Positions 7,307-59,226 of a stretch of DNA of 64,000 nucleotides are shown one piece after another. The position numbers and the translations under genes were made by a program. Source of the DNA: Escherichia phage vB_Ec-M-J; the sequence record OQ718158.1. One strand, 5' to 3'. A model generated the notes under the pieces. The model was not told where the DNA came from. It worked only from the letters and a program-made list of their open reading frames with translations, and made no database searches. Position 1 is the stretch's first letter. Each line of letters opens with the position of its first letter.

Positions 7307-7726
7307 ATGACATACAACATTGTTAAAATGGTGAACTACGTATTAAAAAACAACGCATGGTCACTGCATGATGTACAATTAGAAGATATTGGTGAAGTTA
7401 GAGTTTTTTGCTATGATGACGATTTGAACGAAACCACAGATTTGAGTAAATGTTTTAATATTTTTCTTGGTTATGAAATCGATAATCATTTTTATTCATT
7501 TGATGTGTATGTTGAACGAGTTAAAATCAGAATTTCTAATGTAAATAGTGATTATTTTGACACTATTATGATTGAATTGAATTTTGACGATATTGATACT
7601 GAAGAAAAATTCTTTCAGTACTGTCTCGTAAACGATCTAAATGGATTGACATTTGAGGACATTAAAGCTATACTTATAGTTCAAAGATTAATTCCAGAAG
7701 AGGTTATAAATCCCTTTAATGACTAG
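7307..7726 (+). CDS. hypothetical protein (EE-FQ motif family)
   Basis: TEEKFFQYCLVNDLNGLTFEDI motif; paralog of next gene. Confidence 0.6.
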   Translation: MTYNIVKMVNYVLKNNAWSLHDVQLEDIGEVRVFCYDDDLNETTDLSKCFNIFLGYEIDNHFYSFDVYVERVKIRISNVNSDYFDTIMIELNFDDIDTEEKFFQYCLVNDLNGLTFEDIKAILIVQRLIPEEVINPFND

Positions 7727-8078
7727 TTTAATAACTCGTATAATGCAAGATGTTCGTAAGAATCTTCATACTGGTAATTTTGATGATCCTAACATAAAAA
7801 TATTATGTTATGATGTATTCACACTGGTACACCCATCTGAATCTAATAATATATACATAGCATATACTTCTCCTAATATTTTGTATCAATTTGACTTATA
7901 TAGTACAATGGCTAAGATAACATTAGATGTTTCTAAGGAGCCATTTTTTATAGCAGTACGTGATTTTGAGTACACAGAAGAGTCATTATTCCAGTACTCA
8001 ATGATAAATGACATTGGTGACTTGACATTAGAAGAGATAAATGTTATAGTTGGTATGTGTCGTTTGATTAATCCATAA
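7719..8078 (+). CDS. hypothetical protein (EE-FQ motif family)
   Basis: TEESLFQYSMINDIGDLTLEEI motif; overlaps upstream gene by 8 nt. Confidence 0.6.
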   Translation: MTSLITRIMQDVRKNLHTGNFDDPNIKILCYDVFTLVHPSESNNIYIAYTSPNILYQFDLYSTMAKITLDVSKEPFFIAVRDFEYTEESLFQYSMINDIGDLTLEEINVIVGMCRLINP

Positions 8079-29742: not shown

Positions 29743-30315
29743 ATGAATAGAAAAGGTAAGTTCAAAGTATCAAAGAAGAACAAAAGTTCTAGATTTAGAC
29801 CTATAACTTTAACTTTTAAGGCTAAAGAAGAATTAACTGCACTTAGTAAAAAGATAATTTCATCTAAGATTAAAGTATCATACGTAAATTCGGTAAAATT
29901 TCAGAAGGTTAAACCACAAGACAAACTCATTTCACTTATATTTAAACGTAATGATTTTGAGATATTAGTAGATGATTATAGAGCCTATAATGCTGGATTC
30001 ATTCATGTCACTTGTAATACCGAACTAACTGAGTTGGAACATTTGACATGTATCATAAGTGTAGATAACGGTGTGGTGAAGTACAATTTTTTACATTTTA
30101 CCAATATCAATAATGGAATGGGTGTACAATCCAGACCTATAGTACCTACATGTGATGTGACTAATTTAGCAAAGCTCAATGAAGAAGAATATTTTCAAGA
30201 AAGCATTGTAACTGAGCATTTAGATGCTATAATAGCAACTTACAAAGAATGCATATGGGTTTTGAATGCGATAAAGCCCAAATTGTGTTTAATGAATGTC
30301 GTTCGTGATTTATAA
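29743..30315 (+). CDS. hypothetical protein (EE-FQ motif family)
   Basis: NEEEYFQESIV motif. Confidence 0.6.
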   Translation: MNRKGKFKVSKKNKSSRFRPITLTFKAKEELTALSKKIISSKIKVSYVNSVKFQKVKPQDKLISLIFKRNDFEILVDDYRAYNAGFIHVTCNTELTELEHLTCIISVDNGVVKYNFLHFTNINNGMGVQSRPIVPTCDVTNLAKLNEEEYFQESIVTEHLDAIIATYKECIWVLNAIKPKLCLMNVVRDL

Positions 30316-41891: not shown

Positions 41892-42662
41892 ATGACCAGA
41901 GAAGCACGTAGCATTCAAATCCAGAAAAACTTCAACTCCATGATGGTTGCTCTTGAGTGTTTGCTCGACGATAACAGTACTGTAAAAAGTATGGTTGTCA
42001 GCGGTGCACCTGGTGTTGGTAAGACTTACACCCTGTCACAACGCCTCCAGAAAGCTCATGACGCAGCAGAATGGAACGTAGCTACTATCAGTGGTAAGAT
42101 GACTACTCTTGCTCTGTACGAAGTTCTGTACAAGAATCGTCACAGCACTAACGTATTAGTACTGGATGATATGGACAGCATCTTTGATTCAGAAGACGGT
42201 ATGAACCTGCTCAAAGCAGTACTGGACAGCGGTAAACGTACTGTGTCTTACATGACTAGCTCTAAGTACTTAACTACCAACGGTATCCCTAACAGCTTTG
42301 ATTTTAACGGTCGTATCGTATTCATTACTAACAAAGATTTAGCACTGAATGCTAAAGCTAAAACCAAAATGTCTGCTCACTATGCTGCTCTTATGTCTCG
42401 CTCTGTGTATGTTGACTTACAGATCCAGACTAAAAGCGATATCATGATTCACATTGAAAACGTAATGAACAAGACCAACATCCTGTCAACTAAAGGTGTT
42501 AATAGTAATGGTAGCAAAGCAATCCTGAATTGGATGCTGAAACATGAAGATGCACTTCGTGCCCCTTCACTGCGTATGCCTCTGTTGATTTCAGCAGTAT
42601 ACAACAACAACCCGTATGATTGGGAAGAGCAGTGCGAAAACTTGTTCCTTGAGAAAATTTAA
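41892..42662 (+). CDS. P-loop NTPase (AAA-like ATPase)
   Basis: Walker A SGAPGVGKT, Walker B VLVLDDMD, sensor-like RIVFITN. Confidence 0.65.
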   Translation: MTREARSIQIQKNFNSMMVALECLLDDNSTVKSMVVSGAPGVGKTYTLSQRLQKAHDAAEWNVATISGKMTTLALYEVLYKNRHSTNVLVLDDMDSIFDSEDGMNLLKAVLDSGKRTVSYMTSSKYLTTNGIPNSFDFNGRIVFITNKDLALNAKAKTKMSAHYAALMSRSVYVDLQIQTKSDIMIHIENVMNKTNILSTKGVNSNGSKAILNWMLKHEDALRAPSLRMPLLISAVYNNNPYDWEEQCENLFLEKI

Positions 42663-42729: not shown

Positions 42730-43068
42730 ATGCTTGAGTTTTTTAATTCAGATACAATGCTTAGTATTACTTTGATTTATCTGTTTGGTTTTTTCTTTTA
42801 TCATGCACTAGTTGTAGTACTATGGTATTTTAAAAAGAAAATTGTTTTCAAACTGTATCCTGATGGAAATATTTCACTACTTCTTTTCACTATTATCCAA
42901 GGTATGTTTGCAATTGTTGGTCTTATCGCACACTTAATTTATTGTGCTAATCCACAGTTGAACTCAATATCACAATATATTGTTTTCCTTGGATTACTAA
43001 TTTGGGTGCTGATATACTTGTTTAATCTCATCATTAATGGTAGAGCAAAAATTCGTGGGGACTTCTAA
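42730..43068 (+). CDS. small 3-TM membrane protein, family copy D
   Basis: GGAGA SD; three hydrophobic helices. Confidence 0.6.
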   Translation: MLEFFNSDTMLSITLIYLFGFFFYHALVVVLWYFKKKIVFKLYPDGNISLLLFTIIQGMFAIVGLIAHLIYCANPQLNSISQYIVFLGLLIWVLIYLFNLIINGRAKIRGDF

Positions 43069-43415
43069 TGTTTGAATCTTATCTTGAGTTTTTAAAGAGT
43101 AGTTCTGTTGCACATTCAATTGCAGGGATTATTCTAACAGGTTATGTAACATTTTGGGTAGTTATGTTTCTAGGATGGTATTTTAAACGACAATTCTATA
43201 AGCGTAATGGTGAAGATTTTATGAATTCTTTCATTAATCAATCGTTGTTTGCATCAACATTGATAGCATGTATTGTAGCAACACTCACAGGAAAGGTACT
43301 GCCAGCATTCTCCGCAGTTTACGGTACATTGGGTATGATATGTGTAGTTTTTTACTTGACCATTAAACTTTGTTGTGTTATGATTGAACTTCGAAACAAG
43401 ATACCGGAGGAATGA
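43068..43415 (+). CDS. small 3-TM membrane protein, family copy E
   Basis: TAATG coupling; C-terminal ELRNKIPEE. Confidence 0.6.
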   Translation: MFESYLEFLKSSSVAHSIAGIILTGYVTFWVVMFLGWYFKRQFYKRNGEDFMNSFINQSLFASTLIACIVATLTGKVLPAFSAVYGTLGMICVVFYLTIKLCCVMIELRNKIPEE

Positions 43416-43750
43416 TGGAATATTTTTTACACTTACTGCCGTGGTATATGAAAGTTAGTACTATGTACTATATTCTTAGTGCTGGATTCTACTTTCTGAT
43501 GTGGTTCTTCAAACGACCAATTTCAGTATTCATCTCTGATAACATGCTGCAATTAAAATTACACGCATGGTTTTTTATGGCGATGTTTATGCCTATTATT
43601 CACTACTCAATGATTAGTAGAGGTTTACGTTCTAATGGTGAACCAATTATATTAGTATTCTATTGGGGTTCAACTATTGCATATGTAAGTTTGTTGTTGA
43701 TCCCAGCCGTTCATAAATTGCGTTCTAAAGTTCCTGATGCGAGGTACTAA
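43412..43750 (+). CDS. small 3-TM membrane protein, family copy F
   Basis: ATGA coupling; C-terminal HKLRSKVPDARY. Confidence 0.6.
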   Translation: MMEYFLHLLPWYMKVSTMYYILSAGFYFLMWFFKRPISVFISDNMLQLKLHAWFFMAMFMPIIHYSMISRGLRSNGEPIILVFYWGSTIAYVSLLLIPAVHKLRSKVPDARY

Positions 43751-44064
43751 TGGATATCGTAACATTGATTTACACGTTGTATTCATTCTATTTTATTATG
43801 TGTTGGGTTGGATTTTTATTTGTACTGAAAATGTTTGATTATGTTGAAAAACAGATAAAAGAATTTTGTATTCCTTTTATTGGGTCAACCATAATTAGTA
43901 TTACTTGTTTGTATTATTTGGTATGTGATCCACCTGTTAATACAGCAATGATTGACTTCATGTTATTACCAACAACTGTTATTTTTTTATGTAGTCTGAT
44001 GCCACCGATTAGTCGTGGGCTAACCGAATTTAGACGCAATCAAAAGCGTAAACGAGGGATGTGA
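43750..44064 (+). CDS. small membrane protein, family copy G
   Basis: TAATG coupling; basic C-terminus. Confidence 0.55.
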   Translation: MDIVTLIYTLYSFYFIMCWVGFLFVLKMFDYVEKQIKEFCIPFIGSTIISITCLYYLVCDPPVNTAMIDFMLLPTTVIFLCSLMPPISRGLTEFRRNQKRKRGM

Positions 44065-44432
44065 TGGAAATTGCACTTATTATATTAACTGCTATGTTGT
44101 TTATTAGTACAATTGTTATTATTGGCAAGTTCTTCTGTGTATCCTTCTTGGAAACCGTATACGATGAAATTGCTGATGATTATGAATTACATGCGGGATT
44201 TTTTACTACGTATTGGATTAGTTTATTACTACTTATCACTGTATGGATTTTACATATATTCAAATGGGGTATGGTAGATGGTGATCCAGTACTGGCAATT
44301 ATCTGTGTAGTGTTTGGTCTACTCGGTGGTGCTGTCCATAATCTGATGGTAATTTGGCAAACCGTACAATATGTATTAGTTCCACATTTTCAGAGAATGC
44401 ACCAAAGCATCAAATACCGCAAACGAGGATAA
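44061..44432 (+). CDS. small membrane protein, family copy H
   Basis: ATGA coupling; basic C-terminus. Confidence 0.55.
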   Translation: MMEIALIILTAMLFISTIVIIGKFFCVSFLETVYDEIADDYELHAGFFTTYWISLLLLITVWILHIFKWGMVDGDPVLAIICVVFGLLGGAVHNLMVIWQTVQYVLVPHFQRMHQSIKYRKRG

Positions 44433-44433
44433 C

Positions 44434-44796
44434 ATGAATAATATTGAATTATCTTTTATTGGTCAATTAATGGTAATGGCGTATACATTTATCTTCTCAC
44501 TGAATGCATTCGTGTGCATTGGGAAGTACTTCCATAAGCGACCATTATCAAATATATATGATGTAATACAAAGGAGATATAGTCCAGCATATACTGTGTT
44601 GAGTACAGCATTCAATTTTGGTTTTATTCTAATGCTGGTTGCATTATTAACATCGAGTTCGAATTTTATAACATTTGGTATTATGGTATGTTCACTAACA
44701 CTGTGTGTGGTTATTCTCTGTGCATCAGTTGAGTTGATGGCGTGGATGTATAATAAGATTTCCGAAATCCATGAGCGTTTAGGTAAGAGGAACTAA
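44434..44796 (+). CDS. small membrane protein, family copy I
   Basis: GAGGA SD; basic C-terminus. Confidence 0.55.
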   Translation: MNNIELSFIGQLMVMAYTFIFSLNAFVCIGKYFHKRPLSNIYDVIQRRYSPAYTVLSTAFNFGFILMLVALLTSSSNFITFGIMVCSLTLCVVILCASVELMAWMYNKISEIHERLGKRN

Positions 44797-44797
44797 A

Positions 44798-45169
44798 ATG
44801 AGTTATCGTGAAATATTTTCGATCATTACTATTATTGTGTTTAGTTTAGGTTCTTTGATTTGGTTATTGTATTACTTCTGTGTAACCCCAGTATATAATA
44901 TGCTAAATTCAGTACGCTCTGATGTTGGTATTGTTTCTTTTATTATCTTCATGGCATATTATATGCTAAGTATCACAGGTTTGGTTTTGGTTGTTATCTT
45001 TGACCTTGGACCGAATCAAGATGGTATGGAGGTGTGGGAATTGATAACGATGTTTGCATGTATGATACCTGCATTTGGTGTATGTGCTGGTGTATTTTAT
45101 GGGTTATGTAAAGGTGTGAACTACTTAAAAAATATCCACAATACTATTCGTAAAAAACGTATGTTATAA
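44798..45169 (+). CDS. small membrane protein, family copy J
   Basis: AGAGGAA SD; basic C-terminus. Confidence 0.55.
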   Translation: MSYREIFSIITIIVFSLGSLIWLLYYFCVTPVYNMLNSVRSDVGIVSFIIFMAYYMLSITGLVLVVIFDLGPNQDGMEVWELITMFACMIPAFGVCAGVFYGLCKGVNYLKNIHNTIRKKRML

Positions 45170-45172
45170 TAA

Positions 45173-45205
45173 AAAATCCAGTACTATAATAGTACTGGAT
45201 TAATT
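45173..45205. terminator. bidirectional terminator between convergent blocks
   Basis: ccagtactataatagtactgg palindromic hairpin flanked by A/T runs. Confidence 0.6.
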
Positions 45206-46330
45206 TTAATTATCTAAGCCACCAATTACACTGAACTGTGTGGTAACGTCTGAACTATTATCTATGTAAGTTCTTCGACCAACATAATATAGTTGTCCTT
45301 TTGCTTGAATAAAAGTTACGGTCCCTGTATTGAATGTTATAATATCATTGTATGTAATGTCAGGTGGTAGTGCTGCTGATAATGCAGTAACAGCACTTAA
45401 TGCAGCACTAGCACTACCATTTATACCAGCAGCAATACTACCAGTACCATAGAACTTATTATCTTTACCAATGAATACGTTGGCTGATGCTTGTGTAGCT
45501 GATGTTATTGCCTTACCAATTTGGAATGCGGTTCCTATGGTGTATGGTGTGCTCCTGGCTGCGTCTATGCTTTGTGTATATCCATCCCCTAGCTGACCAT
45601 TAACTTTGTCACCACATGAGTATAGAGTACCATTGAGGCTGTATATGATCCCACGGTTAGAGAAGCTAACAGCTTCTGCATTAGTCCATACTGGTGCGGT
45701 GTATGAGTTTACACGACTAGCGGTAGTTCCTAGACCTAGTATACCATATGTGTTATCACCACATCCAAACCATTGTCCAGAACTGTTTTGATAGAACACT
45801 GAACGTTCTGTTGATTCCATGCGTACAGCATCCACAGCACCACTTTTAACGAACGAAGTGGATGAGGATGTAGTACCAGTACCCAATGCACCATAAGTGT
45901 TTGTACCAATCGCATAGATTGATCCTAGTGGTGTCATAACACGTATGCAGTTATATCCCAATTGAACTTTACATTCAAATAGGTTGTCCCATATTTCAGG
46001 AACAGCAGAAAATAAATTTGTAATTTCGAACCATGATGTTGTCGAACCAGTTAATCCTATACTGCTTTTGTTTCCTAAAATGAAAACAGTTTTGTCCTTC
46101 TTAATTATCCATGATGATAGAAAGCCTATCTCACAGCTATGAACATTTGATTCGATTTGGGTAATATAATACTTAACGGTGTTATCACCCATAAATGCCG
46201 CAGCACCAGATGCAAAAAGGTTTCCAGTTTGTTTATTTAAAATGTAGTTATTGTTTCCATATACACTAACATCATAAGAACTTTCTTGTTTTTCGTTCCC
46301 ATAATCAAATAACAATACGAAAGGTAACAT
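45206..46330 (-). CDS. MLPF-family beta-propeller protein, paralog 1 of 15
   Basis: N-terminus MLPFVLLFDYGNE; RCC1-like blade CGDKVNGQLGDG; AAGGAG SD. Confidence 0.7.
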   Translation of the reverse strand: MLPFVLLFDYGNEKQESSYDVSVYGNNNYILNKQTGNLFASGAAAFMGDNTVKYYITQIESNVHSCEIGFLSSWIIKKDKTVFILGNKSSIGLTGSTTSWFEITNLFSAVPEIWDNLFECKVQLGYNCIRVMTPLGSIYAIGTNTYGALGTGTTSSSTSFVKSGAVDAVRMESTERSVFYQNSSGQWFGCGDNTYGILGLGTTASRVNSYTAPVWTNAEAVSFSNRGIIYSLNGTLYSCGDKVNGQLGDGYTQSIDAARSTPYTIGTAFQIGKAITSATQASANVFIGKDNKFYGTGSIAAGINGSASAALSAVTALSAALPPDITYNDIITFNTGTVTFIQAKGQLYYVGRRTYIDNSSDVTTQFSVIGGLDN

Positions 46331-46407
46331 GATAAAATCTCCTTGTGTTATACTTTATTTAATCATTTTATAATGTACAATTTTACAGCGATTTAATTGA
46401 GGTACTC
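46331..46407. promoter_or_regulatory. divergent promoter region
   Basis: A/T-rich 77-nt spacer between divergent starts, SD on each side. Confidence 0.4.
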
Positions 46408-47058
46408 ATGAATAAAAGAAGTAAGTTCTATCAAGAATATTTCACTAAACAGAAACGATTCACAAAAAAATACTTTACATCATCCCACCGACCAGTTGCA
46501 AGTTACAAACGTCCTAATACTAACTATCTTACTGGTGGCAAGTTTAGTGCAAAGTTCGAATTACTTATGCGTGAAAAGAATATCAAGATGCATTACGCAG
46601 AGACAAGAAAAAACTCATCAATTATTTGTTCTGATTTTCTTGAGTACGGTTGCTTAACTTATAAATTCAATGATGTATATTTGTATATTGATGTTGATTG
46701 TAACAGTACTCGTATGTTTGAGATTTCAATTCACCCAAATCACAACCGTTATATAAACATTAACTTGGTTGATAAAGTACTGATTGGTATATCTAGTACT
46801 GATGGTGGTGGATTTGAATTTATTGCTTCAAAATATGATGAAGATTTCGTACTTTACCCAGTACTTGATGATGTGAAAGATATTCTCAATTCATTAAAAG
46901 GAAGTCAATACAAATTATCTGAAGAACAGCTATTTCAGTACTCACTTATTCATGATGATATCGAGATATACTTAGAGTGTGCGAGAATCTTGGAGTATCT
47001 TTATAATGAACTAACAACAACTGGTAAAGTGACAGCATTCACATTATATAATATGTAA
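46408..47058 (+). CDS. hypothetical protein (EE-FQ motif family) embedded in the minus-strand array
   Basis: GAGG SD; SEEQLFQYSLIHDD motif. Confidence 0.6.
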   Translation: MNKRSKFYQEYFTKQKRFTKKYFTSSHRPVASYKRPNTNYLTGGKFSAKFELLMREKNIKMHYAETRKNSSIICSDFLEYGCLTYKFNDVYLYIDVDCNSTRMFEISIHPNHNRYININLVDKVLIGISSTDGGGFEFIASKYDEDFVLYPVLDDVKDILNSLKGSQYKLSEEQLFQYSLIHDDIEIYLECARILEYLYNELTTTGKVTAFTLYNM

Positions 47059-47091
47059 AAGAAAAAGCCAGTACATAGTACTGGCTTTATA
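47059..47091. terminator. bidirectional terminator
   Basis: gccagtacatagtactggc hairpin flanked by A-run and T-run. Confidence 0.6.
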
Positions 47092-48225
47092 TTAAACTGG
47101 TGGAGAATTATATGGCTCAAATTTATAAGTTGTCGTAGCAGTACCAGCAATGGCGTTGTTAGCTAGTATGTACATAGTCCTATAGTCGATTACTACCACA
47201 GTAATACTACCACCAAAAGCATAGTCTGTTATGTTATTAGTGTTGAATGGTAAATTAGATGAACTGGTCCATGTATTAGCTGTTGTGCTATTTGTACCAT
47301 TGGAATAGCCGACACTAGATGCACCAGTTGTCCATAAGTTTCCATCATTGAACAACGATACATGGTTAGCTGTATATGATTTATTAGGTATAGAACTATC
47401 AATTGGCGTATTCCAAACTTTAGTAACCCATGTTGTGACGGCTGTATTATTAGTAACACCATTACCTAACGAACCATTTATTGGTATACCTCTTATATAA
47501 GAAGTGTTAGTACTAGGGTCAACATATCCAAATGTATATGTATCAAATGCAAATTGAAAACAATCAGAACTCGGTAATGTGTACAGTAATGTATATGAAG
47601 ACGTGATTATTGATGAATTTGTACCGTTCACGCCTTGGTATAAAATACCACTACCCAATATTTGATTATTATTTTTTGTTATAGCAGTCATAGATGGATA
47701 TGTTTTTACTTCACGCACATCATTAGTTACATATGTTTGTGTTGATAATGCAACATTACTACCATTACCAATAACACCTGTATTTGCACCGCTTCCATAA
47801 AGTGAACCATCATTCAAAAGTACCATTGTGGCATTACTATTTCCAGTAATTGTTTTAATATTACTAACATCCACCGCAGCAAATACAGTTGATGTTAAAT
47901 CAGTGAAACGTGTATAATGTGATGTTGTGCCATTGATTGGTGTCGCAAAACCAGAATACAAAATTCTATTTTCTTTGGTAATAAGGAATGTTCCAGTAAC
48001 ACCGTTTGAATGGATATCAATAATATTATCGCCCATTAATACCCAATCACTTACGAATGTTGTACCAGCACCCAACCCATATGTCGTATTGTATCCACGT
48101 CCATACACTCTACCATCACTGAGTAATGTTACCACACATTGACCACCACCACCAAGGATAACTTTTTGGATAGTACTCTTTACTTTTATATTCCCGTACT
48201 TAACCATTCTTGCAAAAGGTAACAT
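47092..48225 (-). CDS. MLPF-family beta-propeller protein, paralog 2
   Basis: MLPFARMVKYGNIKV; Gly/Thr/Asn-rich body; conserved upstream box. Confidence 0.7.
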   Translation of the reverse strand: MLPFARMVKYGNIKVKSTIQKVILGGGGQCVVTLLSDGRVYGRGYNTTYGLGAGTTFVSDWVLMGDNIIDIHSNGVTGTFLITKENRILYSGFATPINGTTSHYTRFTDLTSTVFAAVDVSNIKTITGNSNATMVLLNDGSLYGSGANTGVIGNGSNVALSTQTYVTNDVREVKTYPSMTAITKNNNQILGSGILYQGVNGTNSSIITSSYTLLYTLPSSDCFQFAFDTYTFGYVDPSTNTSYIRGIPINGSLGNGVTNNTAVTTWVTKVWNTPIDSSIPNKSYTANHVSLFNDGNLWTTGASSVGYSNGTNSTTANTWTSSSNLPFNTNNITDYAFGGSITVVVIDYRTMYILANNAIAGTATTTYKFEPYNSPPV

Positions 48226-48295
48226 AATTCCCTCCTTTATTCTTTATACTATATTTAATCAAAAAGAAAAGCCAGTACTCTGTACTGGCATTATT
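48226..48295 (-). promoter_or_regulatory. array intergenic module: hairpin terminator plus conserved TATAA/SD box
   Basis: Minus-sense gccagtacagagtactggc-TTTTCTTTTTGATTAAATATAGTATAAAGAATAAAGGAGGGAATT-ATG. Confidence 0.55.
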
Positions 48296-49456
48296 TTAAA
48301 TTGGTGAATCTTCAACAAATATAGTACTAGCAGTACCACCAGATACTAGGTTAGTACCACTTGAATATATTTTGTTTCCATCTGTCATATATGTTTTACC
48401 ATAGCAACTTTGGATTTTAACATCTTTGAAATTCAAATCAGGAGTAATAGATTTAGTGTAAGTTAATACGTTAGTAGTTGAACCTGTACTTAATTGTCCA
48501 TAGTATGAAGTCGCTGAGTTATTACCAGCAACGTATACACCTGTGTCAGTAATAACAAAGTTAGAGTAATATCCGTACCCATATCCTATATCTAATATAT
48601 TTCCTTGTGGTTGATTTGCCACAACAGTTGTCAATATGTTGGTTGATGCTGCTGTATTAGTAGCAGCCTGTCCATATGATTGGTCACCACCAGTATACAC
48701 AGTAACAACAGACGTACTATTGTTTCTAGCAATACCTTGAACCATACCATTAACAGTACTTATAAATGCTATAGTACTAACAGTTGCTGGTAATCTATCT
48801 GATAATGCGAATACATTATAAAAACTCACGGTTGAAGTACTGTTAGTATCACCCTTAACTTCACCTGTGTAATATAGTCTACCACTTTCGGCAATAAACG
48901 AACACATGTTTATACCTGCAATAATCCTTTTCGGAACCGCACCACTTGGTATAATTGATTGTACTAAAGTAGAGAAACTGTTAGAATAAGAAGCATTCCC
49001 AAGCTGCCCTCCTGTGTTATAACCACCACTCCAAATTGTCCCATTACTCATAAGTATTGAAATGAAGTTATTCCCTAGTGATATTTCTGAAATTGTTCCT
49101 TGGGAATTAACTTGATTAATAACAGTTTGCATAGAAGTCCATGCATTAACAGATGATGTACCCATACACACATTGTATTGTCGCCCTGTGTATTGATATG
49201 TACCATCTGATTTGTGAATCATTGTAGCATACTGACCACACCATACATCAATGACATCCGATGCAGTTACTGTCCATGATGTTCTGGTTGTATTGTCTCC
49301 TAAACCCAACTGACCACTTGAATTGGAACCACGGGTATATAATTTACCATTACTACCCAATACCATAACCCAGTTATACCCTGCAACTAATTTTTTAATG
49401 GCAGCAGGGGATGGTGCAATGTTCCCGTAATCAAACAATCTTACAAAAGGTAACAT
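48296..49456 (-). CDS. MLPF-family beta-propeller protein, paralog 3
   Basis: Start set at MLPFVRLFDYGN (track ORF extends 13 codons upstream); GQLGLGDNTT and GGQLGN blades; AAGGAG SD. Confidence 0.7.
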   Translation of the reverse strand: MLPFVRLFDYGNIAPSPAAIKKLVAGYNWVMVLGSNGKLYTRGSNSSGQLGLGDNTTRTSWTVTASDVIDVWCGQYATMIHKSDGTYQYTGRQYNVCMGTSSVNAWTSMQTVINQVNSQGTISEISLGNNFISILMSNGTIWSGGYNTGGQLGNASYSNSFSTLVQSIIPSGAVPKRIIAGINMCSFIAESGRLYYTGEVKGDTNSTSTVSFYNVFALSDRLPATVSTIAFISTVNGMVQGIARNNSTSVVTVYTGGDQSYGQAATNTAASTNILTTVVANQPQGNILDIGYGYGYYSNFVITDTGVYVAGNNSATSYYGQLSTGSTTNVLTYTKSITPDLNFKDVKIQSCYGKTYMTDGNKIYSSGTNLVSGGTASTIFVEDSPI

Positions 49457-49469
49457 TTTTTTCTCCTTA

Positions 49470-50618
49470 TTATATTGATGGCATATCCAACACATATGAG
49501 TTGCTAGTAATTGATGAATATGTAGAATTTAAACCTGTACTATAAACATAATCACCTGCCCATAAGAATGTTCTATCCAATGTTGTATGTATTTCAATAT
49601 CATCATATGATGATAATGATATTTGTGCTAGTGTATATGTAGTAGCATCAATGTTTGAACCAATACCCAAAGTACCATTGTATTGTGATTGGGAGTTTTG
49701 ACCAGTTGCATATATACCAGATTTGGTTATTAAATGCTGATTGTACATTGACGTACCTTTAAACAATTTAATTAAATTAGAGTTAGGTGTAGTTATTGGT
49801 GCAGGAGCAAGTATTGTTGTTGTAGTGCCACCATCACCTAATTGTCCATATCGTTGGTAACCACCAGCGTATACCTGTTTAACTCCAGCCGTAGTTTCAA
49901 TAATAAAGAATGAACCATAGCCAGTAGTATTAAAGTCTATAATTTTATTTGTACTCAAACCAACATTATATCTAGTAAATGTTGTTGCATTTGCTGAACC
50001 ACCAGCATTCCCACCTACCATTTGCCCACTATAATAAAATGCTCCAGTACTGTCAGTATAAGCCATACAGTTCTCACTACCATAGATTTTTACTGGTGTA
50101 CTGGGGAAACTAGAGGTTATATTCACACATGTATTATATTTTGCAGTAGTTCCAGTAATTTCACCATTGTTGTTTTGCCCAATTACCCAAACTGTGTCAT
50201 CCGAACGTATAGCCATTGAGCTATAAAACGAGGATACAAATTGTTTAATAAAGGAACCAGGGAGAGAAGTAAGCATACTATTGATTTGTGCACTCACATT
50301 GGTCCATGTATTCACAACTGAATTGACACCTGCGGCTGCACCTGAACCAGAACTCCACCATGATTCATCATTCTTTTTAATCAATGTACCATTAGCAGAG
50401 CAATAAACATCAGCAACTGAACTATTAACTAATATCCATGCCCTCGCTGCTGTTGTATTACCAGTACCTAGCTGTCCTGCTGCATTACTACCCTTAGCAT
50501 ATAAATCTCCATTCTGCGTTAAAAGCATAGCATGTTGGTATCCAGTTGACAATTTCTTTATTTTTGGTAATGCTGGTGCTTCATTTCCATAATCAAACAT
50601 TCTAACAAAAGGTAACAT
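49470..50618 (-). CDS. MLPF-family beta-propeller protein, paralog 4
   Basis: MLPFVRMFDYGNEAP; AAGQLGTGNTT and YGQLGDGG blades; C-terminal YVLDMPSI. Confidence 0.7.
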   Translation of the reverse strand: MLPFVRMFDYGNEAPALPKIKKLSTGYQHAMLLTQNGDLYAKGSNAAGQLGTGNTTAARAWILVNSSVADVYCSANGTLIKKNDESWWSSGSGAAAGVNSVVNTWTNVSAQINSMLTSLPGSFIKQFVSSFYSSMAIRSDDTVWVIGQNNNGEITGTTAKYNTCVNITSSFPSTPVKIYGSENCMAYTDSTGAFYYSGQMVGGNAGGSANATTFTRYNVGLSTNKIIDFNTTGYGSFFIIETTAGVKQVYAGGYQRYGQLGDGGTTTTILAPAPITTPNSNLIKLFKGTSMYNQHLITKSGIYATGQNSQSQYNGTLGIGSNIDATTYTLAQISLSSYDDIEIHTTLDRTFLWAGDYVYSTGLNSTYSSITSNSYVLDMPSI

Positions 50619-50689
50619 AATTCCCTCCTTTATTCATTATACTATATTTAATCAAAAAGAAAAGCCAGTACTCAAGTACTGGCATTATC
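50619..50689 (-). promoter_or_regulatory. array intergenic module: hairpin terminator plus conserved TATAAT/SD box
   Basis: Minus-sense gccagtacttgagtactggc-TTTTCTTTTTGATTAAATATAGTATAATGAATAAAGGAGGGAATT-ATG. Confidence 0.55.
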
Positions 50690-51868
50690 TTAAAATTGTG
50701 GTAGTTGGTATTCAGTTAATGTCCATGTACCTGTAACTGTTCCATTCGGGGACATCCCTGTGTAGTATAATTTGCCACCAGCGTATACAAATAATGCATT
50801 GTCATTAGCAGCAACCATCGAAGTTTCTGGATCAAATACTACAGAAATTGGTAATTGTGATTGAACAAATACTGACGCATTGGTAGTTGAATTGTTACCA
50901 AGTTGTCCATAGTTGTTATACCCAGTACTGAAAATACGGCTACCATTTCTATATAATATACCCCTAGTACTTTGTGAATGTAGATCTATAAATTCAAAAT
51001 CGGAAACATTAGTTAATTGCAAATAAGTACTTTGTGGAGTTAGTGCTGTCTTATTCGTATTGGTTGTAACTCCATTACCTAATTGACCGTAAAATTGTGA
51101 TCCTAAACCATATAGCGGATAAGTACCATCTGAATAAAGAACTATACCCAACATCTTATTATGTGAAAGAATATCTATTGGATATTTCCCTGTACCAAAG
51201 TCGTATCTAGTCCAAGACGTTAATGTAGCCGACGCTGCCCCAGTTAACAAAGTACCAGTGGTAGTTGTGCCACATCGCCACGCTGAATTATCATTCTTAA
51301 TTATCCAAGTTGGACTATTAAAAAATGAACTAACCTTTTTAACATTAATATTGACCTGGGTTAATTCTGTAAGCATTGATGAACTTGAACCCAACTCATA
51401 TGTGGAGTTATTACCTATTGCATAAAGAACCCCACTATTTGTTAGTACAAACAAATTACGAACATTAGGATATATCTCTTTAATATCATCAATATTAATA
51501 CCCGAAAAATAAGAAGTACATTCCACAAAGGTAGTACTTTGTACTTCACTCGATGCACCTGTCCAGGTGTTCCATCCTGCATAATAAAATTTATTATCAT
51601 TAGTCTGTACTAAGCTATATGAAGAGTTCCTAGTGCACCAGAAATTTTTCACATTTTGCATTAATCGAACCCATGATGTCTGTGTTGTAGTATTACCCAG
51701 TCCGAAAATACCAGCATTGTTTCCACCGATACCCCACAAATCACCGTTACTATACTGTAGCATCAATGTATTGTTGGTGAACGCTGATGGTGCTTGCATT
51801 TTAATTACATTAGCTGATGGTGCAGGTTTAATATTCCCGTACTTAACCATTCTTGCAAAAGGTAACAT
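50690..51868 (-). CDS. MLPF-family beta-propeller protein, paralog 5
   Basis: MLPFARMVKYGNIKP; YGQLGNG blades; C-terminal EYQLPQF. Confidence 0.7.
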   Translation of the reverse strand: MLPFARMVKYGNIKPAPSANVIKMQAPSAFTNNTLMLQYSNGDLWGIGGNNAGIFGLGNTTTQTSWVRLMQNVKNFWCTRNSSYSLVQTNDNKFYYAGWNTWTGASSEVQSTTFVECTSYFSGINIDDIKEIYPNVRNLFVLTNSGVLYAIGNNSTYELGSSSSMLTELTQVNINVKKVSSFFNSPTWIIKNDNSAWRCGTTTTGTLLTGAASATLTSWTRYDFGTGKYPIDILSHNKMLGIVLYSDGTYPLYGLGSQFYGQLGNGVTTNTNKTALTPQSTYLQLTNVSDFEFIDLHSQSTRGILYRNGSRIFSTGYNNYGQLGNNSTTNASVFVQSQLPISVVFDPETSMVAANDNALFVYAGGKLYYTGMSPNGTVTGTWTLTEYQLPQF

Positions 51869-51943
51869 ATATTTTTCCTCCTTTATTCATTATACTATAT
51901 TTAATCAAAACGAAATGCCAGCACTCAAGTACTGGCATTATTG
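51869..51943 (-). promoter_or_regulatory. array intergenic module
   Basis: Same hairpin plus TATAATGAATAAAGGAGG box. Confidence 0.55.
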
Positions 51944-53134
51944 TTATAGTTGTCTTGGAGTATCAAGTACATATCTATTTGTACTAGGACCACCATCATC
52001 ATAAGTTCCGGTTGAATATATATTTTTCATATCAGCAGTTAGGAAAGTACGTAACGACCCTCGATATATTTTTATTTTATCATACATAGAATATGTTATT
52101 TCTGACGGCAATGGACATGCAGTAAATTTACCAATGGTAACATTAGAACCAACACCCAATGAACCAGCATAACTACTCGCATTTAAACCTGTTGCATATA
52201 CACCAGAACTCGTAACTAGTATACTAGATTGTGCTGGGTATCCAGTATGAATTGAATACAAAGTACCGGGTGGTAAGGTTGTACTATTATTTCCTAATAC
52301 TGCTCGTGCTGTACTAGACGTAGTGTTATTACCCCATGCCCCATTATTGGCGTTCCCACCCACTAGGAACTGACGTGCTCCTGTACTTGGATTCTCCACT
52401 AAAGCACTGACTGCACCAATTGTACATACAACATATTGTAATGTTTTTGTATATGTTGTACTTGGCTGATATAAAGTATATTGATTGTATGGAGTCCATG
52501 TATCAGTAGTACTTATACCTGATGTACTACCACCAATATATAAATTATTTTGTGTATCATAAAACATTACACAGCTATTTGTTGACTGTATTCGTGCAAT
52601 ATCAACATTAGGCGTGACAGCTTTTACAAATGATCCATCTGTTATTTGCTGAGTACTACCAGTACCATCAGCGAATTGTCTAGCCCCACTCCAACCAGTA
52701 CTCCATATTGTATTATTATCCATTAAGAAAGTAAACCAAGTAGTACCTGCATACATCTGTTTAATTGAAGTACCTGAACTTTGTGTGTACAAATTTTCAA
52801 TATATTGGTTATAACTTAAAAATGATGTAGTACTAGTTTCTAAACCAATATGACTACCATATCCACAATAAAAATAATTTAAGTCCTTATCTTGAACTAA
52901 CAAAGTTCCTTGTGTCATCCAGCAATCTTTGACATTTTCTCTAATTAATGTCCACGACCTTACTGCATTATTATTTCCGCGACCGAACTTCCCATAACTA
53001 TTATTTCCTCGTGCGTATAGTTGACCGTCAGTATAAAGTACAACCACATCAGTATCAGTTGGTATTATTTTCTTAATTAGAAGAGGTTCAGGTGTGATAT
53101 TCCCATAATCAAACAATCTAACAAAAGGTAACAT
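51944..53134 (-). CDS. MLPF-family beta-propeller protein, paralog 6
   Basis: MLPFVRLFDYGNITP; C-terminal YVLDTPRQL. Confidence 0.7.
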   Translation of the reverse strand: MLPFVRLFDYGNITPEPLLIKKIIPTDTDVVVLYTDGQLYARGNNSYGKFGRGNNNAVRSWTLIRENVKDCWMTQGTLLVQDKDLNYFYCGYGSHIGLETSTTSFLSYNQYIENLYTQSSGTSIKQMYAGTTWFTFLMDNNTIWSTGWSGARQFADGTGSTQQITDGSFVKAVTPNVDIARIQSTNSCVMFYDTQNNLYIGGSTSGISTTDTWTPYNQYTLYQPSTTYTKTLQYVVCTIGAVSALVENPSTGARQFLVGGNANNGAWGNNTTSSTARAVLGNNSTTLPPGTLYSIHTGYPAQSSILVTSSGVYATGLNASSYAGSLGVGSNVTIGKFTACPLPSEITYSMYDKIKIYRGSLRTFLTADMKNIYSTGTYDDGGPSTNRYVLDTPRQL

Positions 53135-53204
53135 ATTTTCCTCCTTTATTCATAATACTATATTTAACCAAAAAGAAAAGCCAGTACTTGATACTGGCGT
53201 AATG
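53135..53204 (-). promoter_or_regulatory. array intergenic module
   Basis: gccagtatcaagtactggc hairpin plus conserved box. Confidence 0.55.
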
Positions 53205-54347
53205 TCAATAAGCTTCCCACGGTAAGGGTGTCTTCCTAAATCCATACCTGGTTGTGGTCGCACCATCACCAGCAATGTATCGACCGATACCACATTGGTA
53301 TAACTCTGTACTACTACATATAGCACCACCAATAGTACCACTACTCCACAGAATTATATTAGAATATGTTATTGGTAAATCACTACATTTAGTATATACA
53401 CCAACGGTAGCAGTCCCACTAATACCACCAAACATACTTCGGTTAGCACCAGTATAATATATACCATCTGGACTCATAAATGCAGAGGTGTAAGTTGTAC
53501 TACAATCCACTGGACTTCTTATAGTATTAAGATCGCCTGGGTATGTCCTGACACCAAAGGTGTATACATTACCATCAGTTGTAATACCATTACCTAACTG
53601 CCCACTGTTTTGTCCACCACATGTAAGCAACAATGCAGAACCAGAAACAATTGCAGTAGCATTATACGAAGTACCCATCGCAATAGAAGCACCAGACAAT
53701 AGTTTTGGAGTAACAATAGCTGTTGTATTACCCTGGCCTAATTCACCATTGATATTTCGTCCCCATGCGTATATAGAAGTTGTATCCAATCGACATAGTA
53801 CTGAACCATAACTAAACGTATATCGCATGTCAATTACCGCATTAGGCAAATTAACCTTAGTTGCAACACTAATAACACCACCAGTAACACCACTGTTTGC
53901 GTTCATGTTACGACCATATGCATATAAAGAACCATCTGAAGTTTTAATATGCATCATACCATCTGTACAATACAATGCATCTATACTATCCACTGCAACC
54001 GGACCCATACTGGTAGTTATATCGGTCCACCCAAGCGTGGTAGTACTGGAAATTAAGTTATTTCCGGCGTATAGTATTCTATTATTATTAGTAACTACAA
54101 CTGTATATCTGGCAGTAACACCAATTAATCGAACATCAGTATATATCTTAGACCACGCACCTAATGAATTGGTGTTTGCATCCAAAAAGCCCAACTGCCC
54201 ATCTGTATTGTATCCAATACCCCATACATCACCTGCACTGTCCAATAACACTTCATGTGAAAATCCAATCTTAAAATCTTTTATTGTAGGAACTACCGGA
54301 ACTGGTGCAATATTCCCGTACTTAACCATTCTAGCAAAAGGTAACAT
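53205..54347 (-). CDS. MLPF-family beta-propeller protein, paralog 7
   Basis: MLPFARMVKYGNIAP; DGQLGF, GELGQGNTT and SGQLGNG blades. Confidence 0.7.
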   Translation of the reverse strand: MLPFARMVKYGNIAPVPVVPTIKDFKIGFSHEVLLDSAGDVWGIGYNTDGQLGFLDANTNSLGAWSKIYTDVRLIGVTARYTVVVTNNNRILYAGNNLISSTTTLGWTDITTSMGPVAVDSIDALYCTDGMMHIKTSDGSLYAYGRNMNANSGVTGGVISVATKVNLPNAVIDMRYTFSYGSVLCRLDTTSIYAWGRNINGELGQGNTTAIVTPKLLSGASIAMGTSYNATAIVSGSALLLTCGGQNSGQLGNGITTDGNVYTFGVRTYPGDLNTIRSPVDCSTTYTSAFMSPDGIYYTGANRSMFGGISGTATVGVYTKCSDLPITYSNIILWSSGTIGGAICSSTELYQCGIGRYIAGDGATTTRYGFRKTPLPWEAY

Positions 54348-54423
54348 AATTCCCTCCTTTATTCATTATACTATATTTAATACAAAAAAGAAAAGCCAGC
54401 ACTCAAGTACTGGCATTTTAATT
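54348..54423 (-). promoter_or_regulatory. array intergenic module
   Basis: Hairpin plus conserved box. Confidence 0.55.
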
Positions 54424-55572
54424 TTAACGAGGTATAACTATTTTTTTGAATAATCCAGTATTTCCTGCATTTTCTTCTTCATATGGAATTGTACCCATAC
54501 CAGCAGTTCTGCCACCATTCCCTGAACCATACAGTTCTCCATTCTTAATCATGAATGTTATCATATAACCATGTGTCATTTTATCATATGGAACTGGTTC
54601 AGTTATATTATTACATGCTCGCCATGTACTAATAACACTAGAGTTCGTTATACCATCACCTGATGCGTTTCCTCGACCAGCGAAATACCATATCCCACCT
54701 GCTCTAACGTGTGCTTCATAATTAGAACCACCTATGTAATCAATCGCAGTACTAGGAATACTAGAAGCTGGTATCTTTGTGATTGTTCTAAGACTGTTAA
54801 TAGTGCCATTAGTACCATCACCCAACTGTCCATATATTTGTGAACCGAATACATATAGCCCATCACTCTTTAATACGTAATTAGCACTATATGCATTTTC
54901 TGAATTTACCTGTAATACTCCAGTAGTAACAGTAGTCAATGTGGTGGTAGTTGTACCAGTCGAACCAATACTAGATTTATTCCCACTGTACTTTAATATT
55001 CCATTATTGTATAATACAAATGAAGCATTATCAGCGGTTACACCAATATCTTTAACATCAACTTCTGGTGTCAATGTCAGTACTGATACTCTTTGGTCAA
55101 CAGCCCCAGTAAAAACTTCACCGTTGTTATTGTAACCCATCTTATATAATTTATTATCTATTGTTAATAATAATGTAACGCCGTTTCCTATAACTATTTT
55201 ACTATATGTGTCATTCACATCATCAAAAATACCAAGTATTTCTGTCCATACACGATAAGTAGTATTAACACCACGATAGATTTGAGCACCAGTACTCCAC
55301 CATGTGCCATCATTTTTACGTACTAATATTCCATGTGTATTACCAGTAGTCCAAAATTCCTTTACATCAGTTAAACATAAAACCCACTCTTCAACTATAG
55401 TAGGAGAACTACTACCAGTACCTAATTGATAGTAAAAATTATGCCCTCTGCCATATAATCTTCCGTCTTCTAATAAAATAAACACATTATTCTGTAAAAC
55501 TTTTACCATCTTTATACCAACTGGCACAGGTGCTTCATTCCCATAATCAAACATTCTAACAAAAGGTAACAT
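54424..55572 (-). CDS. MLPF-family beta-propeller protein, paralog 8
   Basis: MLPFVRMFDYGNEAP; YYQLGTG and YGQLGDG blades. Confidence 0.7.
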   Translation of the reverse strand: MLPFVRMFDYGNEAPVPVGIKMVKVLQNNVFILLEDGRLYGRGHNFYYQLGTGSSSPTIVEEWVLCLTDVKEFWTTGNTHGILVRKNDGTWWSTGAQIYRGVNTTYRVWTEILGIFDDVNDTYSKIVIGNGVTLLLTIDNKLYKMGYNNNGEVFTGAVDQRVSVLTLTPEVDVKDIGVTADNASFVLYNNGILKYSGNKSSIGSTGTTTTTLTTVTTGVLQVNSENAYSANYVLKSDGLYVFGSQIYGQLGDGTNGTINSLRTITKIPASSIPSTAIDYIGGSNYEAHVRAGGIWYFAGRGNASGDGITNSSVISTWRACNNITEPVPYDKMTHGYMITFMIKNGELYGSGNGGRTAGMGTIPYEEENAGNTGLFKKIVIPR

Positions 55573-55643
55573 ATTTCCCTCCTTTATTCATTATACTATA
55601 TTTAATTCAAAAAGAAAAGCCAGTATCAAGTACTGGCATTATG
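55573..55643 (-). promoter_or_regulatory. array intergenic module
   Basis: Hairpin plus conserved box. Confidence 0.55.
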
Positions 55644-56753
55644 TTATTTTGGTAAATCAATTTTAGTAAAGACTGCAACATCCTCGCTTGCCCCTGGGAT
55701 GGCGTAATAAGAACCAGTACTATATACATCTCCGTCTTTTGTTAATATTGAAGTTAAACCATCACTAAAAAGAACATCACTAATCTCACTAACTGAAACA
55801 GGTAATTGTAAATTAGTAGCACTATATATTGCACCAGTTTGAGAATTGTTTAATCCCAAACCACGGTTCGCCCCAACACCCTTCTGATATGTACTAGTAA
55901 TTATAATTTGTGTAGCAGTATTTAATGCAGGTGAATTCGTCATAAACAACGGAGAACTATTAGGCAAAGAACTTACAGGAACTGCACGAAATGTAGTTGT
56001 ATCTGAACTAAGAAAGTTTGGCGTTTGACCACATACGAAATATGATGTACCATTATAGTAATTAAATGCATTACCACCTATAGCTGCATCTATTACTCCA
56101 GTACTACGTAATCCCCACGTGTTAATTTGTGTTCGGTTCCCCGTGCCATGCTGACCCCTGTCATTCCACCCAGAACTATATAACTTATTATCTAATGTAA
56201 TATACATACTGTCATTTGAATTCGTCATTACTTTACGCACATTAGTAGCACATTGAGTTAATGTGTAAATTGATGATGAACCAATACCTAAAGCACCACG
56301 ATATCCATTAGCCCCTGCACCATAGAGTACTGAACTAGTGCTAAGTACAAATATTAAACCATACGAACATACTATATCAGCAATTTCATTTACCGATAGT
56401 ACACTCGTAAACCACGCAGTCCTATCAACTAATACAGTACTGTAAGAAGTCCCAGTAGAAGACGAAAACCAATAAGTCTCACCAGCAGTCCATATAGTAT
56501 TGTCACTCTTAATAACAACAACTGTACGATCACCAGCAAAAAAATTAGTAACTTCTGTACTCACTAATCTCCATGAAGATACAGTGTTGGTATTACCATT
56601 TCCAGATTCACCACCTTGATTTCTACCTATGTAATATAAATCATGTGAATCAGTCAATAAGAATTGACCCTGTGTAGACGCACCAACTTTTATTATATTT
56701 TTAGGACCAGGTGTGATATTCCCATAATCAAACATTCTTACAAAAGGTAACAT
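55644..56753 (-). CDS. MLPF-family beta-propeller protein, paralog 9
   Basis: MLPFVRMFDYGNITP; RGQHGTGNRT blade; C-terminal FTKIDLPK. Confidence 0.7.
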   Translation of the reverse strand: MLPFVRMFDYGNITPGPKNIIKVGASTQGQFLLTDSHDLYYIGRNQGGESGNGNTNTVSSWRLVSTEVTNFFAGDRTVVVIKSDNTIWTAGETYWFSSSTGTSYSTVLVDRTAWFTSVLSVNEIADIVCSYGLIFVLSTSSVLYGAGANGYRGALGIGSSSIYTLTQCATNVRKVMTNSNDSMYITLDNKLYSSGWNDRGQHGTGNRTQINTWGLRSTGVIDAAIGGNAFNYYNGTSYFVCGQTPNFLSSDTTTFRAVPVSSLPNSSPLFMTNSPALNTATQIIITSTYQKGVGANRGLGLNNSQTGAIYSATNLQLPVSVSEISDVLFSDGLTSILTKDGDVYSTGSYYAIPGASEDVAVFTKIDLPK

Positions 56754-56763
56754 ATTTCTCTCC

Positions 56764-57894
56764 TTAATTTAATAATGCCCCTGGCAAATCCACTTTGACG
56801 AATTGTGCATATGCTGAGGAATTTTGATCAAAGTTTGGTCCCAATCCATAAAATGAGCTAATGCCGTCTTCATTTGTGTATATGATATAAACGTTCTTTA
56901 CATCATTTCCGCATATAAATCGAATGTCTTTCGTTTGTGTTCCCGCTGGAACATTACGAAGGTTCACAACGCCATTACTTGCATTGTTATCAGCCGACGC
57001 AATTGGTAATTGATTTTGACCATATTGACCACGCATATTTTTTGCATCTAAACCAAACACAGTATCTGATACCGCACCAACTTTCAAAAATGAACCAAAA
57101 CTATTATTGAATGACTTTGGAAATGTACCACTATAAACACTTCTCCCATCTGATAATACCGCTGAACTGAATTTCCCGCTATTCGATATGGCAAATTCAT
57201 TGTAAGGAAGTGTACCCATTTTGGTATATACAGAATATGAATTAGTGGAAGTATTATCAATAATCTTATTACCATTATATCCAATACCATACTGGTATCC
57301 GTCTGCATCTTGAACTATACACAAAGGACCACTTGGGGTTTGTGTCAACGAAACAACACGTTCAACTTGTATATCACCAAATGTATTTCTTCGCCATGTT
57401 CTATCTATTATAGTACTAGTATTACCCAAAGATAATGCCACACTATATAATAGATTGTTTTCAGTAAAAATGGCAACATAATATGCGTGGTTAATAACTT
57501 GCTTCATCCCAGCATCAATAACTTCCTGTGGAATATGATCAGTAACATCCAACCAATCAAGGTTAGATGATGCAATATCTGGAGTACTGAATTTGTCAAA
57601 TCTAGTTGAGCCACAAACTAGCACTCTATCATCATTTGTCAAAGCCACTGTGCTAGTCTGCATATTAGAACTGAATGATTTAACATTACTAATGTTAGAC
57701 TTGTACCAACCCTTATCAGCAGCACCCACCGTGAATCCGGTTCCCATTGATCCACTTGTACTTGTACCATAAGCCCACATCTCACCACTATATGTTAGTG
57801 CCATACAGTGGCTTCCATTTGCTTGGAAATCCTTTATACCAGTGGGAGCAACCACTGTATTCCCATAATCAAACATTCTAACAAAAGGTAACAT
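56764..57894 (-). CDS. MLPF-family protein, paralog 10
   Basis: MLPFVRMFDYGNTVV; only 10 nt from paralog 9 start; C-terminal FVKVDLPGALLN. Confidence 0.7.
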   Translation of the reverse strand: MLPFVRMFDYGNTVVAPTGIKDFQANGSHCMALTYSGEMWAYGTSTSGSMGTGFTVGAADKGWYKSNISNVKSFSSNMQTSTVALTNDDRVLVCGSTRFDKFSTPDIASSNLDWLDVTDHIPQEVIDAGMKQVINHAYYVAIFTENNLLYSVALSLGNTSTIIDRTWRRNTFGDIQVERVVSLTQTPSGPLCIVQDADGYQYGIGYNGNKIIDNTSTNSYSVYTKMGTLPYNEFAISNSGKFSSAVLSDGRSVYSGTFPKSFNNSFGSFLKVGAVSDTVFGLDAKNMRGQYGQNQLPIASADNNASNGVVNLRNVPAGTQTKDIRFICGNDVKNVYIIYTNEDGISSFYGLGPNFDQNSSAYAQFVKVDLPGALLN

Positions 57895-57971
57895 AACTAA
57901 TTCTCCAAATTCAAATAATTATAATGTATTTACAAAAAAAATACCAGCACATATTTCAGTACTGGTATCAT
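57895..57971 (-). promoter_or_regulatory. array intergenic module (variant box)
   Basis: Hairpin with cagtactg core plus TGTAAATACATTATAAT and GGAG SD. Confidence 0.5.
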
Positions 57972-59153: not shown

Positions 59154-59226
59154 AATAAAATCTCCGTAATTAAATTATATAGTATTTACAAAAAATACCA
59201 GTACATATTTCAGTACTGACCTATTA
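59154..59226 (-). promoter_or_regulatory. array intergenic module (variant box)
   Basis: Hairpin plus GTAAATACTATATAAT and GGAGA SD. Confidence 0.5.

Follow-up and report, generated by a model that had tools for sequence, protein, structure and literature searches.

The closest described counterparts of the gene studied here are 121Q gp233, PBECO4 gp297 and phAPEC6 gp011c, hypothetical proteins of jumbo coliphages that are 45% identical to its product over the full length, have the same neighbours and share its basic N-terminal helix and FQYSLI...TA(F/Y)TLYN C-terminus. In 121Q, PBECO4 and phAPEC6 the gene comes right after the membrane-gene hairpin and an RBS, without a promoter of its own and with no RCC1-like gene upstream. 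The gp011c ortholog is absent from the virion proteome of phAPEC6, in which six neighbouring RCC1-like proteins were detected (PMC7247149). As to the regulatory elements between genes, the closest described system is the T4-type PeSL (promoter-early stem-loop), a composite of a stem-loop and promoter elements (Arbiol et al., 2010, PMC2839356; Comeau et al., 2014, PMC4122927).

We analyzed a 64,000-nucleotide stretch of Escherichia phage vB_Ec-M-J (OQ718158.1), hereafter called the window. Megablast placed it in the 121Q/PBECO4 jumbo coliphage group (Asteriusvirus), nearest to WPEC3, WPEC5, fEgEco12 and Turkey3 with 97-98% identity. The window is AT-rich (32-38% G+C), and its GC skew changes sign at the meeting point of a long plus-strand block and a minus-strand one, near 46-48 kb. 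The features at this junction are as follows.

42730..45169, plus strand: seven tandem small membrane-protein genes (104-123 aa, multi-pass)
45175..45201: hairpin AATCCAGTAC-loop-GTACTGGATT after the last membrane-protein gene, common to 121Q/PBECO4; here the terminator of paralog 1
45206..46330, minus strand: RCC1-like paralog 1 (374 aa), with the array N-terminus (MLPFVLLFDYGN) and promoter core; it parts the 216-aa gene from the plus-strand block
46331..46407, both strands: gap of 77 bp that separates the start codon of paralog 1 from that of the 216-aa gene
46408..47058, plus strand: 216-aa orphan gene with an ATG start, ortholog of 121Q gp233/PBECO4 gp297/phAPEC6 gp011c (phrog_34359)
47064..47088: hairpin AAAGCCAGTAC-ATA-GTACTGGCTTT between the 216-aa gene and paralog 2, whose 3' ends face each other; the standard array terminator
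47092..48225, minus strand: RCC1-like paralog 2 (377 aa), present only in nine close isolates and absent from L007, a representative of a 73% identical lineage

The original prediction had described a 216-aa plus-strand gene with an EE..FQ motif between paralogs 1 and 2, and its coordinates and setting are correct; the motif segment SEEQLFQYSLIHDD forms residues 171-184 of the protein (window 46918-46959, plus strand). The gene had also been taken for an insertion, as the order in a single genome hinted. When presence or absence at this position was compared among relatives, the gene was instead found to be a positionally fixed resident, ancestral at the end of the plus-strand block, and the lineage-specific element is paralog 1; the comparison thus turns the insertion into a conserved border gene beside a hopping array cassette. 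The best explanation, to which we assign a probability of roughly 0.7, is that the 216-aa gene would be an ancestral accessory gene confined to Asteriusvirus. It would close a plus-strand block rich in sigma70 promoters, which at this gene converges on a minus-strand array of RCC1-like virion-protein genes. In the window lineage, a single RCC1 cassette made up of paralog 1, its RBS and the promoter core (about 45202-46395) would have come between the membrane-operon hairpin and the 216-aa gene, and the gene would for that reason look embedded.

Judging from its annotation in relatives, its dN/dS of 0.06-0.19 and its single copy in each of 34 phage records (tblastn), the 216-aa gene is a real gene under purifying selection, and the same dN/dS rules out positive selection behind its fast divergence. 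Ortholog identities by tblastn were 93-99.5% in nine records, 43-47% in 23 and 30% in two (JNE01 and Turkey5), and wider searches added one further intermediate only, a metagenomic lineage (L007, L008) at 73% identity. No homolog beyond this phage group was found among 5.8 billion clustered proteins, nor any outside it in an exhaustive profile search of 1.84 billion representatives. One apparent remote homolog from the exhaustive search, P0009 (3182 aa, E 4e-8), was rejected, as it is an Ig-like repeat protein in which 13 weak repeat matches are summed, each with E > 1 pairwise.

Gene order was inspected in eight relatives (121Q, PBECO4, phAPEC6, ph0011, Sharanji, SD-1_S14, JNE01 and Turkey5) from two divergent lineages that comprise 25 of the 34 genomes, and no RCC1-like gene lies upstream of the ortholog in any of the eight. 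In the first six, the ortholog is the last plus-strand gene and faces the RCC1-like array; in 121Q-type phages it starts about 45 bp, hairpin included, past the last tandem membrane-protein gene. JNE01 and Turkey5 have the same order with one additional small plus-strand ORF on either side of the ortholog. Among the relatives inspected, the embedded order occurs only in WPEC3, WPEC5 and L007/L008. Paralog 1 in turn is detectable only in the nine close isolates and the 73% metagenomic lineage, and no ortholog of it was found as the first array member in other lineages. A foreign origin of paralog 1 was considered and rejected, since it has no close relatives outside its own two clusters and carries the array N-terminus and promoter core; no donor was found elsewhere.

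At the left breakpoint, the alignment of the window with 121Q extends across the last membrane-protein gene and then the hairpin AATCCAGTAC...GTACTGGATTAAT. Beyond GTACTGGATTAAT, 121Q continues into the AAGGAG-N5-ATG of the ortholog and the window into the 3' end of paralog 1. The hairpin at 45175..45201, which in 121Q/PBECO4 stands directly 5' of the ortholog RBS, thereby forms the left edge of the extra segment in the window. The segment is flanked by an imperfect direct repeat, GATTAAT/GATTTAAT, which is too short and AT-rich to be weighed as a target-site duplication.

For the neighbouring ATPase, identity is 96% in the window-121Q pair and 59% when either of the two is set against JNE01, and the 216-aa gene shows 45% (window-121Q), 30% (window-JNE01) and 32% (121Q-JNE01) identity. 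Midpoint rooting on these values therefore sets JNE01/Turkey5 outside and makes the embedded state the derived one. The opposite polarity, with an ancestral embedded order and a deletion of paralog 1 in both the 121Q-type and the JNE01-type phages, appears unlikely to us, and of the alternatives for the locus it is the one we rank lowest. The 121Q junction is exactly what a deletion between the GATTAAT/GATTTAAT repeats would leave, gain or loss of RCC1 cassettes is demonstrable (paralog 2 in L007, an extra copy in WPEC5), and the truncation of the 216-aa gene in SD-1_S14 shows that deletions happen at the locus. However, under midpoint rooting this history requires two independent and precise losses, as compared with a single change for a derived embedded order. 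In JNE01/Turkey5, moreover, the ortholog is flanked on either side by other, additional plus-strand ORFs and no RCC1 remnant is seen, and a repeat this short and AT-rich may have arisen by chance. The polarity is weakened by evident mosaicism, as dS is unequal among the neighbours of the gene and spans 0.2 to 1.6 across adjacent genes between the window and L007. In that comparison dS is 0.77 for the 216-aa gene and for paralog 1 alike, which suggests that the two have travelled together since a single event and is consistent with one shared event. In WPEC3, the AAA-ATPase (L002 890-1663) shares only 59% identity with window 41892-42662 between neighbours that are 98-100% identical, as if the allele had been exchanged with a JNE01-type phage.

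Identity to 121Q drops toward the junction, from 96% in the ATPase to about 90 and then 82, 73 and 63% in the membrane-protein genes and 45% in the 216-aa gene. The first four RCC1-like copies have no 121Q orthologs (25-36%), and the copies from 50690 onward again reach 83-88%. The 216-aa gene therefore sits in a hyperplastic island. Modular shuffling at the locus, as originally proposed, is borne out by RCC1 cassette indels on both sides of the gene: the absence of paralog 2 from L007, in which the paralog 3 ortholog comes after the hairpin, amounts to a second cassette indel beside the 216-aa gene, and WPEC5 has one extra RCC1 copy.

Both hairpins at the junction are stable (dG -15.6 to -16.5 kcal/mol, z -4.3 to -5.3). 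The one at 47064-47088 had been called a bidirectional terminator, and it is indeed strong whichever strand is read (dG about -15.7 kcal/mol, z -4.3 and -5.1); a good T-run, however, is found on the minus strand only, in the tail TTTTTCTTTT, and the terminator scan calls that strand alone. On the plus strand, the T's lie mostly within the stem (GGCTTT) and are followed by ATATTAAA. Equivalents of this hairpin occur between the last plus-strand gene and the first RCC1-like gene in L007, ph0011 and JNE01; the hairpin is therefore an ancestral feature of the convergence point. In 121Q and Sharanji, the 3' end of the ortholog meets the RCC1 region without a hairpin, and in 121Q it overlaps the first RCC1-like gene.

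Viewed along the minus strand, the 216-aa gene lies exactly between two cassette parts, the hairpin and T-run that follow paralog 2 and, ahead of paralog 1, the core GATTAAATAAAGTATAAC. It may thus be asked whether the gene, together with a 43-nt leader, was inserted into an existing RCC1 intergenic cassette one slot into the array. For such an event speak a 13/16 match to the promoter core that overlaps the last codons of the gene directly after the T-run, the shorter C-terminus of the window lineage (...LYNM versus ...LYNIPKMVNL in 121Q) and the mapping of PeSL crossovers to equivalent positions (PMC2839356). Yet a core match with three mismatches is within chance (about six expected), and ph0011 and JNE01, in which the gene lacks the embedded setting, have the hairpin 3' of it as well. 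The lack of a paralog 1 ortholog at the head of the array in other lineages likewise argues against it, and the gene was not imported, its neighbours (the membrane-gene array and the RCC1 array) being the same in all 34 genomes. At most, this would be a one-slot swap, and we consider it improbable, if slightly less so than the two losses discussed above. Its product is the same as that of a shifted cassette: a swap of two adjacent genes gives an identical order, no matter which of them moved. For the shifted cassette that we prefer, the likely mechanism would be recombination at or near a composite cassette consisting of the hairpin CCAGTAC-loop-GTACTGG, a T-run, GATTAAATATAGTATAAT, an SD and the conserved first 12 codons. 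The membrane-gene operon ends in the same kind of hairpin as the array cassette, and the event would follow T4-type PeSL logic.

The 77-bp gap had been read as a divergent promoter region, and this holds for one of its two directions. On the minus strand, it contains the promoter core GATTAAATAAAGTATAAC (46347-46364) and AAGGAG (46339-46344), so that paralog 1 has kept the array promoter core and RBS (0/5000 shuffles score as well). The plus strand offers only a bare TATAAT (46369-46374) and a GAGG RBS (46399-46402), and no good -35 for this TATAAT was found in 46331..46407. A cassette origin of the 43 nt next to the ATG of the 216-aa gene was not detectable (p = 0.57 versus shuffles). A decayed hairpin between the paralog 1 promoter and the 216-aa gene was likewise rejected, as the alignment to the hairpin half was no better than shuffles (p = 0.57) and no significant secondary structure was found in the gap. 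The 121Q ortholog, without a promoter of its own, would presumably be fed by read-through of the preceding hairpin. In the window, the 216-aa gene would have lost this read-through from the membrane operon and would rely on a weak, -10-only signal in its new 43-nt leader.

The array comprises 14 intact RCC1-like genes of 369-399 aa, of which paralogs 1 and 2 are the first two, and a shorter 331-aa ORF at 62780 that has only short segments in common with them. Paralogs 1 and 2 match Pfam RCC1/WD40_RLD and the PHROG 'regulator of chromosome condensation'. A hairpin-plus-T-run cassette stands 5' of 10 of the 14 intact genes and is close to the consensus in eight (hairpin GCCAGTAC-loop-GTACTGGC; T-run; GATTAAATATAGTATAAT; AAAGGAGG; ATGTTACCTTTTG...); the array hairpin occurs five times with none expected. 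Like the PeSL, this cassette combines a stem-loop terminator, an AT/T-rich spacer, a -10 and an SD, and is repeated between non-core genes of a hyperplastic region. Both elements also bound indels or replacements between close relatives and make every gene a self-contained expression unit. In the array, such a cassette-bounded indel is the absence of paralog 1 from 121Q-type and JNE01-type phages, with the breakpoint at the hairpin. Unlike the PeSL, the RCC1 cassette lacks a recognisable -35 (the promoter scan found none at 16-18 nt from its TATAAT, which reads TATAAC in the paralog 1 copy), it reaches into 36 conserved coding nucleotides, and it borders virion-protein genes whereas the T4-type PeSL borders early ORFans. 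The locus is a clear jumbo-phage example of shuffling mediated by regulatory cassettes outside the T4-type phages where this was first described, an ordinary but clean case at a hotspot of converging transcription.

The plus-strand block itself contains nine canonical PeSL-like elements (GGGTTGACTTCGGTCARCCC, T-run and TATAAT, with the -35 inside the stem-loop), with none expected and none at this junction.

19211, 27684, 31278, 32058, 33639, 34321, 38944, 40422 and 41834, plus strand: PeSL-like elements, upstream of or between plus-strand genes

Four near-consensus sigma70 promoters of the form TTGACA-N15/16-TGTATAAT were also observed in the window (4131, 21611, 25920 and 36786, plus strand), and their palindromic (C)AGTACTG core is also that of the array hairpin motif. 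Neither a PeSL-like element nor such a promoter accompanies the 216-aa gene.

Within the array, eight paralogs (window 47092-62767, minus strand) have 5' cassettes (45 nt upstream and the initial 36 nt of coding sequence) that are 83-89% identical, and the gene bodies of the same eight gave no blastn matches to one another. In these virion proteins, near-identical 5' cassettes are thus joined to bodies that have diverged past recognition at the DNA level, which points to concerted evolution or to strong selection on the N-terminus MLPFVRMFDYGN. In the paralog at 48296-49495 (minus strand), the longest ORF begins 13 codons upstream of the conserved start (MCWICHQYNKEKK-MLPF...) and has a 26-nt overlap with the previous gene. 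Inside this ORF, the conserved MLPF is preceded by an AAGGAG of its own, and the internal ATG is probably the true start. These homogenised 5' cassettes and the acidic motif family described next are of greater interest than the insertion first proposed.

The original prediction had also assigned the 216-aa gene to a motif-sharing family, and this was confirmed: the other members lie only in the upstream plus-strand block, and among the 70 plus-strand ORFs with 90 aa or more, nine contain the motif [ED][ED]x(1-2)FQx[SNC], compared with 0.06 expected (0/2000 shuffles). The motif always lies 27-48 residues from the C-terminus and is found in none of 155 minus-strand segments. In the 216-aa protein, it occupies residues 172-179, 39 residues from the C-terminus. 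The motif is kept in the 121Q and JNE01 orthologs of the motif ORFs, and the orthologs of the 216-aa gene have the core (L/M)FQYSL(I/L)..DI..Y(L/I)E...TA(F/Y)(T/I)LYN, in which FQYSL is conserved in all and EE is variable. Three further members of the block are needed below.

7307..7726 and 7719..8078, plus strand: two small acidic paralogs of the motif family; the 216-aa gene finds its best profile match in ORF 7719, and a structure model was made for ORF 7307
29743..30315, plus strand: 190-aa motif ORF, the only window ORF aligned near full length by the ortholog HMM (E 1e-4, window ORF set)

ORFs 7719, 7307 and 8747 are true paralogs of one another, and eight of the ten family members (the nine motif ORFs and paralog 8747) have a pI of 4.2-4.7. 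When ortholog alignments were compared by hhalign, the top six of 69 profiles were five of the strict-motif ORFs and paralog 8747, all aligned to residues 163-198 of the 216-aa protein. The match to ORF 7719 reached 78% probability (E 2e-5) over 31 columns; the five other motif-related ORFs gave 4-17%, with a background median of 0.2%. Four family members recurrently showed a weak match to phrog_12674 at the motif. No annotated relative was found for any member by Pfam, PHROG or PDB sequence search, and no function could be assigned to the 216-aa protein from Pfam, PHROG annotation, PDB sequence or BFVD fold searches.

The 216-aa protein consists of 45 basic N-terminal residues (pI 10.5) and an acidic alpha/beta body (pI 4.8). 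Its AF2 model (pLDDT 66.6, pTM 0.67) shows a basic helix 3-22, a disordered linker, a helix 48-56, seven strands and the helices 154-162, 172-179 and 185-205, so that the motif is a short helix preceding the long C-terminal one. In the ORF 7307 model (pLDDT 80, pTM 0.76), the elements follow one another in the same order and the motif falls in the corresponding helix; the two models were compared by the order of secondary structure alone, without superposition. A likeness by convergence, in which EE..FQ is a short helix-capping motif and the 216-aa gene is unrelated to the small plus-strand ORFs, seems doubtful. It would account for there being just one reasonably strong profile-profile match with the rest below 20%, for the exhaustive HMM search retrieving none of the small motif ORFs and for EE not being conserved among the orthologs. 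It fits poorly, however, with an enrichment as extreme and position-specific as that of the motif, with all of the top six hhalign matches falling on the same segment, with the recurrence of phrog_12674 at the motif and with two independent AF2 models that agree in element order and motif helix and retrieve the same PDB family. On this comparative and model-based footing, we regard the family as real at the level of motif and fold and as mostly acidic, and the EE..FQ helix would be common to about ten paralog families, most of them acidic, with the 216-aa gene as one of these.

Proteins of the p32/gC1qBP/Mam33 family (PF02330) are acidic proteins of the mitochondrial matrix that form an acidic homotrimeric doughnut and are built from a helix, a seven-stranded antiparallel sheet and C-terminal helices. 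In fold searches of the PDB, the models of the 216-aa protein and of ORF 7307 both retrieved p32/Mam33 with weak similarity, and the body of the 216-aa protein is acidic like this family; at the sequence level, it gave no Pfam match at E up to 1, PF02330 included, and no PDB match. Tentatively, the 216-aa protein could be a non-virion, probably oligomeric acidic alpha-beta7-alpha platform of the p32/MAM33 type that binds a basic partner and carries a basic amphipathic N-terminal helix. As a product of the sigma70-promoter-rich and presumably early block, it would be non-structural and accessory, most likely a host-interaction factor binding a basic partner from the host or the phage. The multi-paralog orphan family with its common helix motif may have a p32/MAM33-like fold as a whole. 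More speculatively still, EE..FQ might mark an unrecognised superfamily of such platforms, with about ten paralog families per Asteriusvirus genome acting as decoys or chaperones for basic proteins. In that scheme, which we think rather unlikely in its entirety, the 216-aa member would be specialised at the early/late border, and the RCC1 array would be diversified by a late-gene analogue of the PeSL with a homogenised N-terminal segment.

In Salmonella phage SD-1_S14 (310-kb genome; L014 2480-2819), the ortholog is cut to its 5' half and the neighbouring RCC1-like genes are fragmented; with the ortholog halved, the gene is likely dispensable on at least that host. Within the plus-strand block, the minus-strand gene 12300-13457 (385 aa) stands alone. 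It was rejected as a displaced RCC1 copy, having no similarity to the RCC1-like genes, and matches 121Q gp155, an Ig-domain virion structural protein, in position and size.
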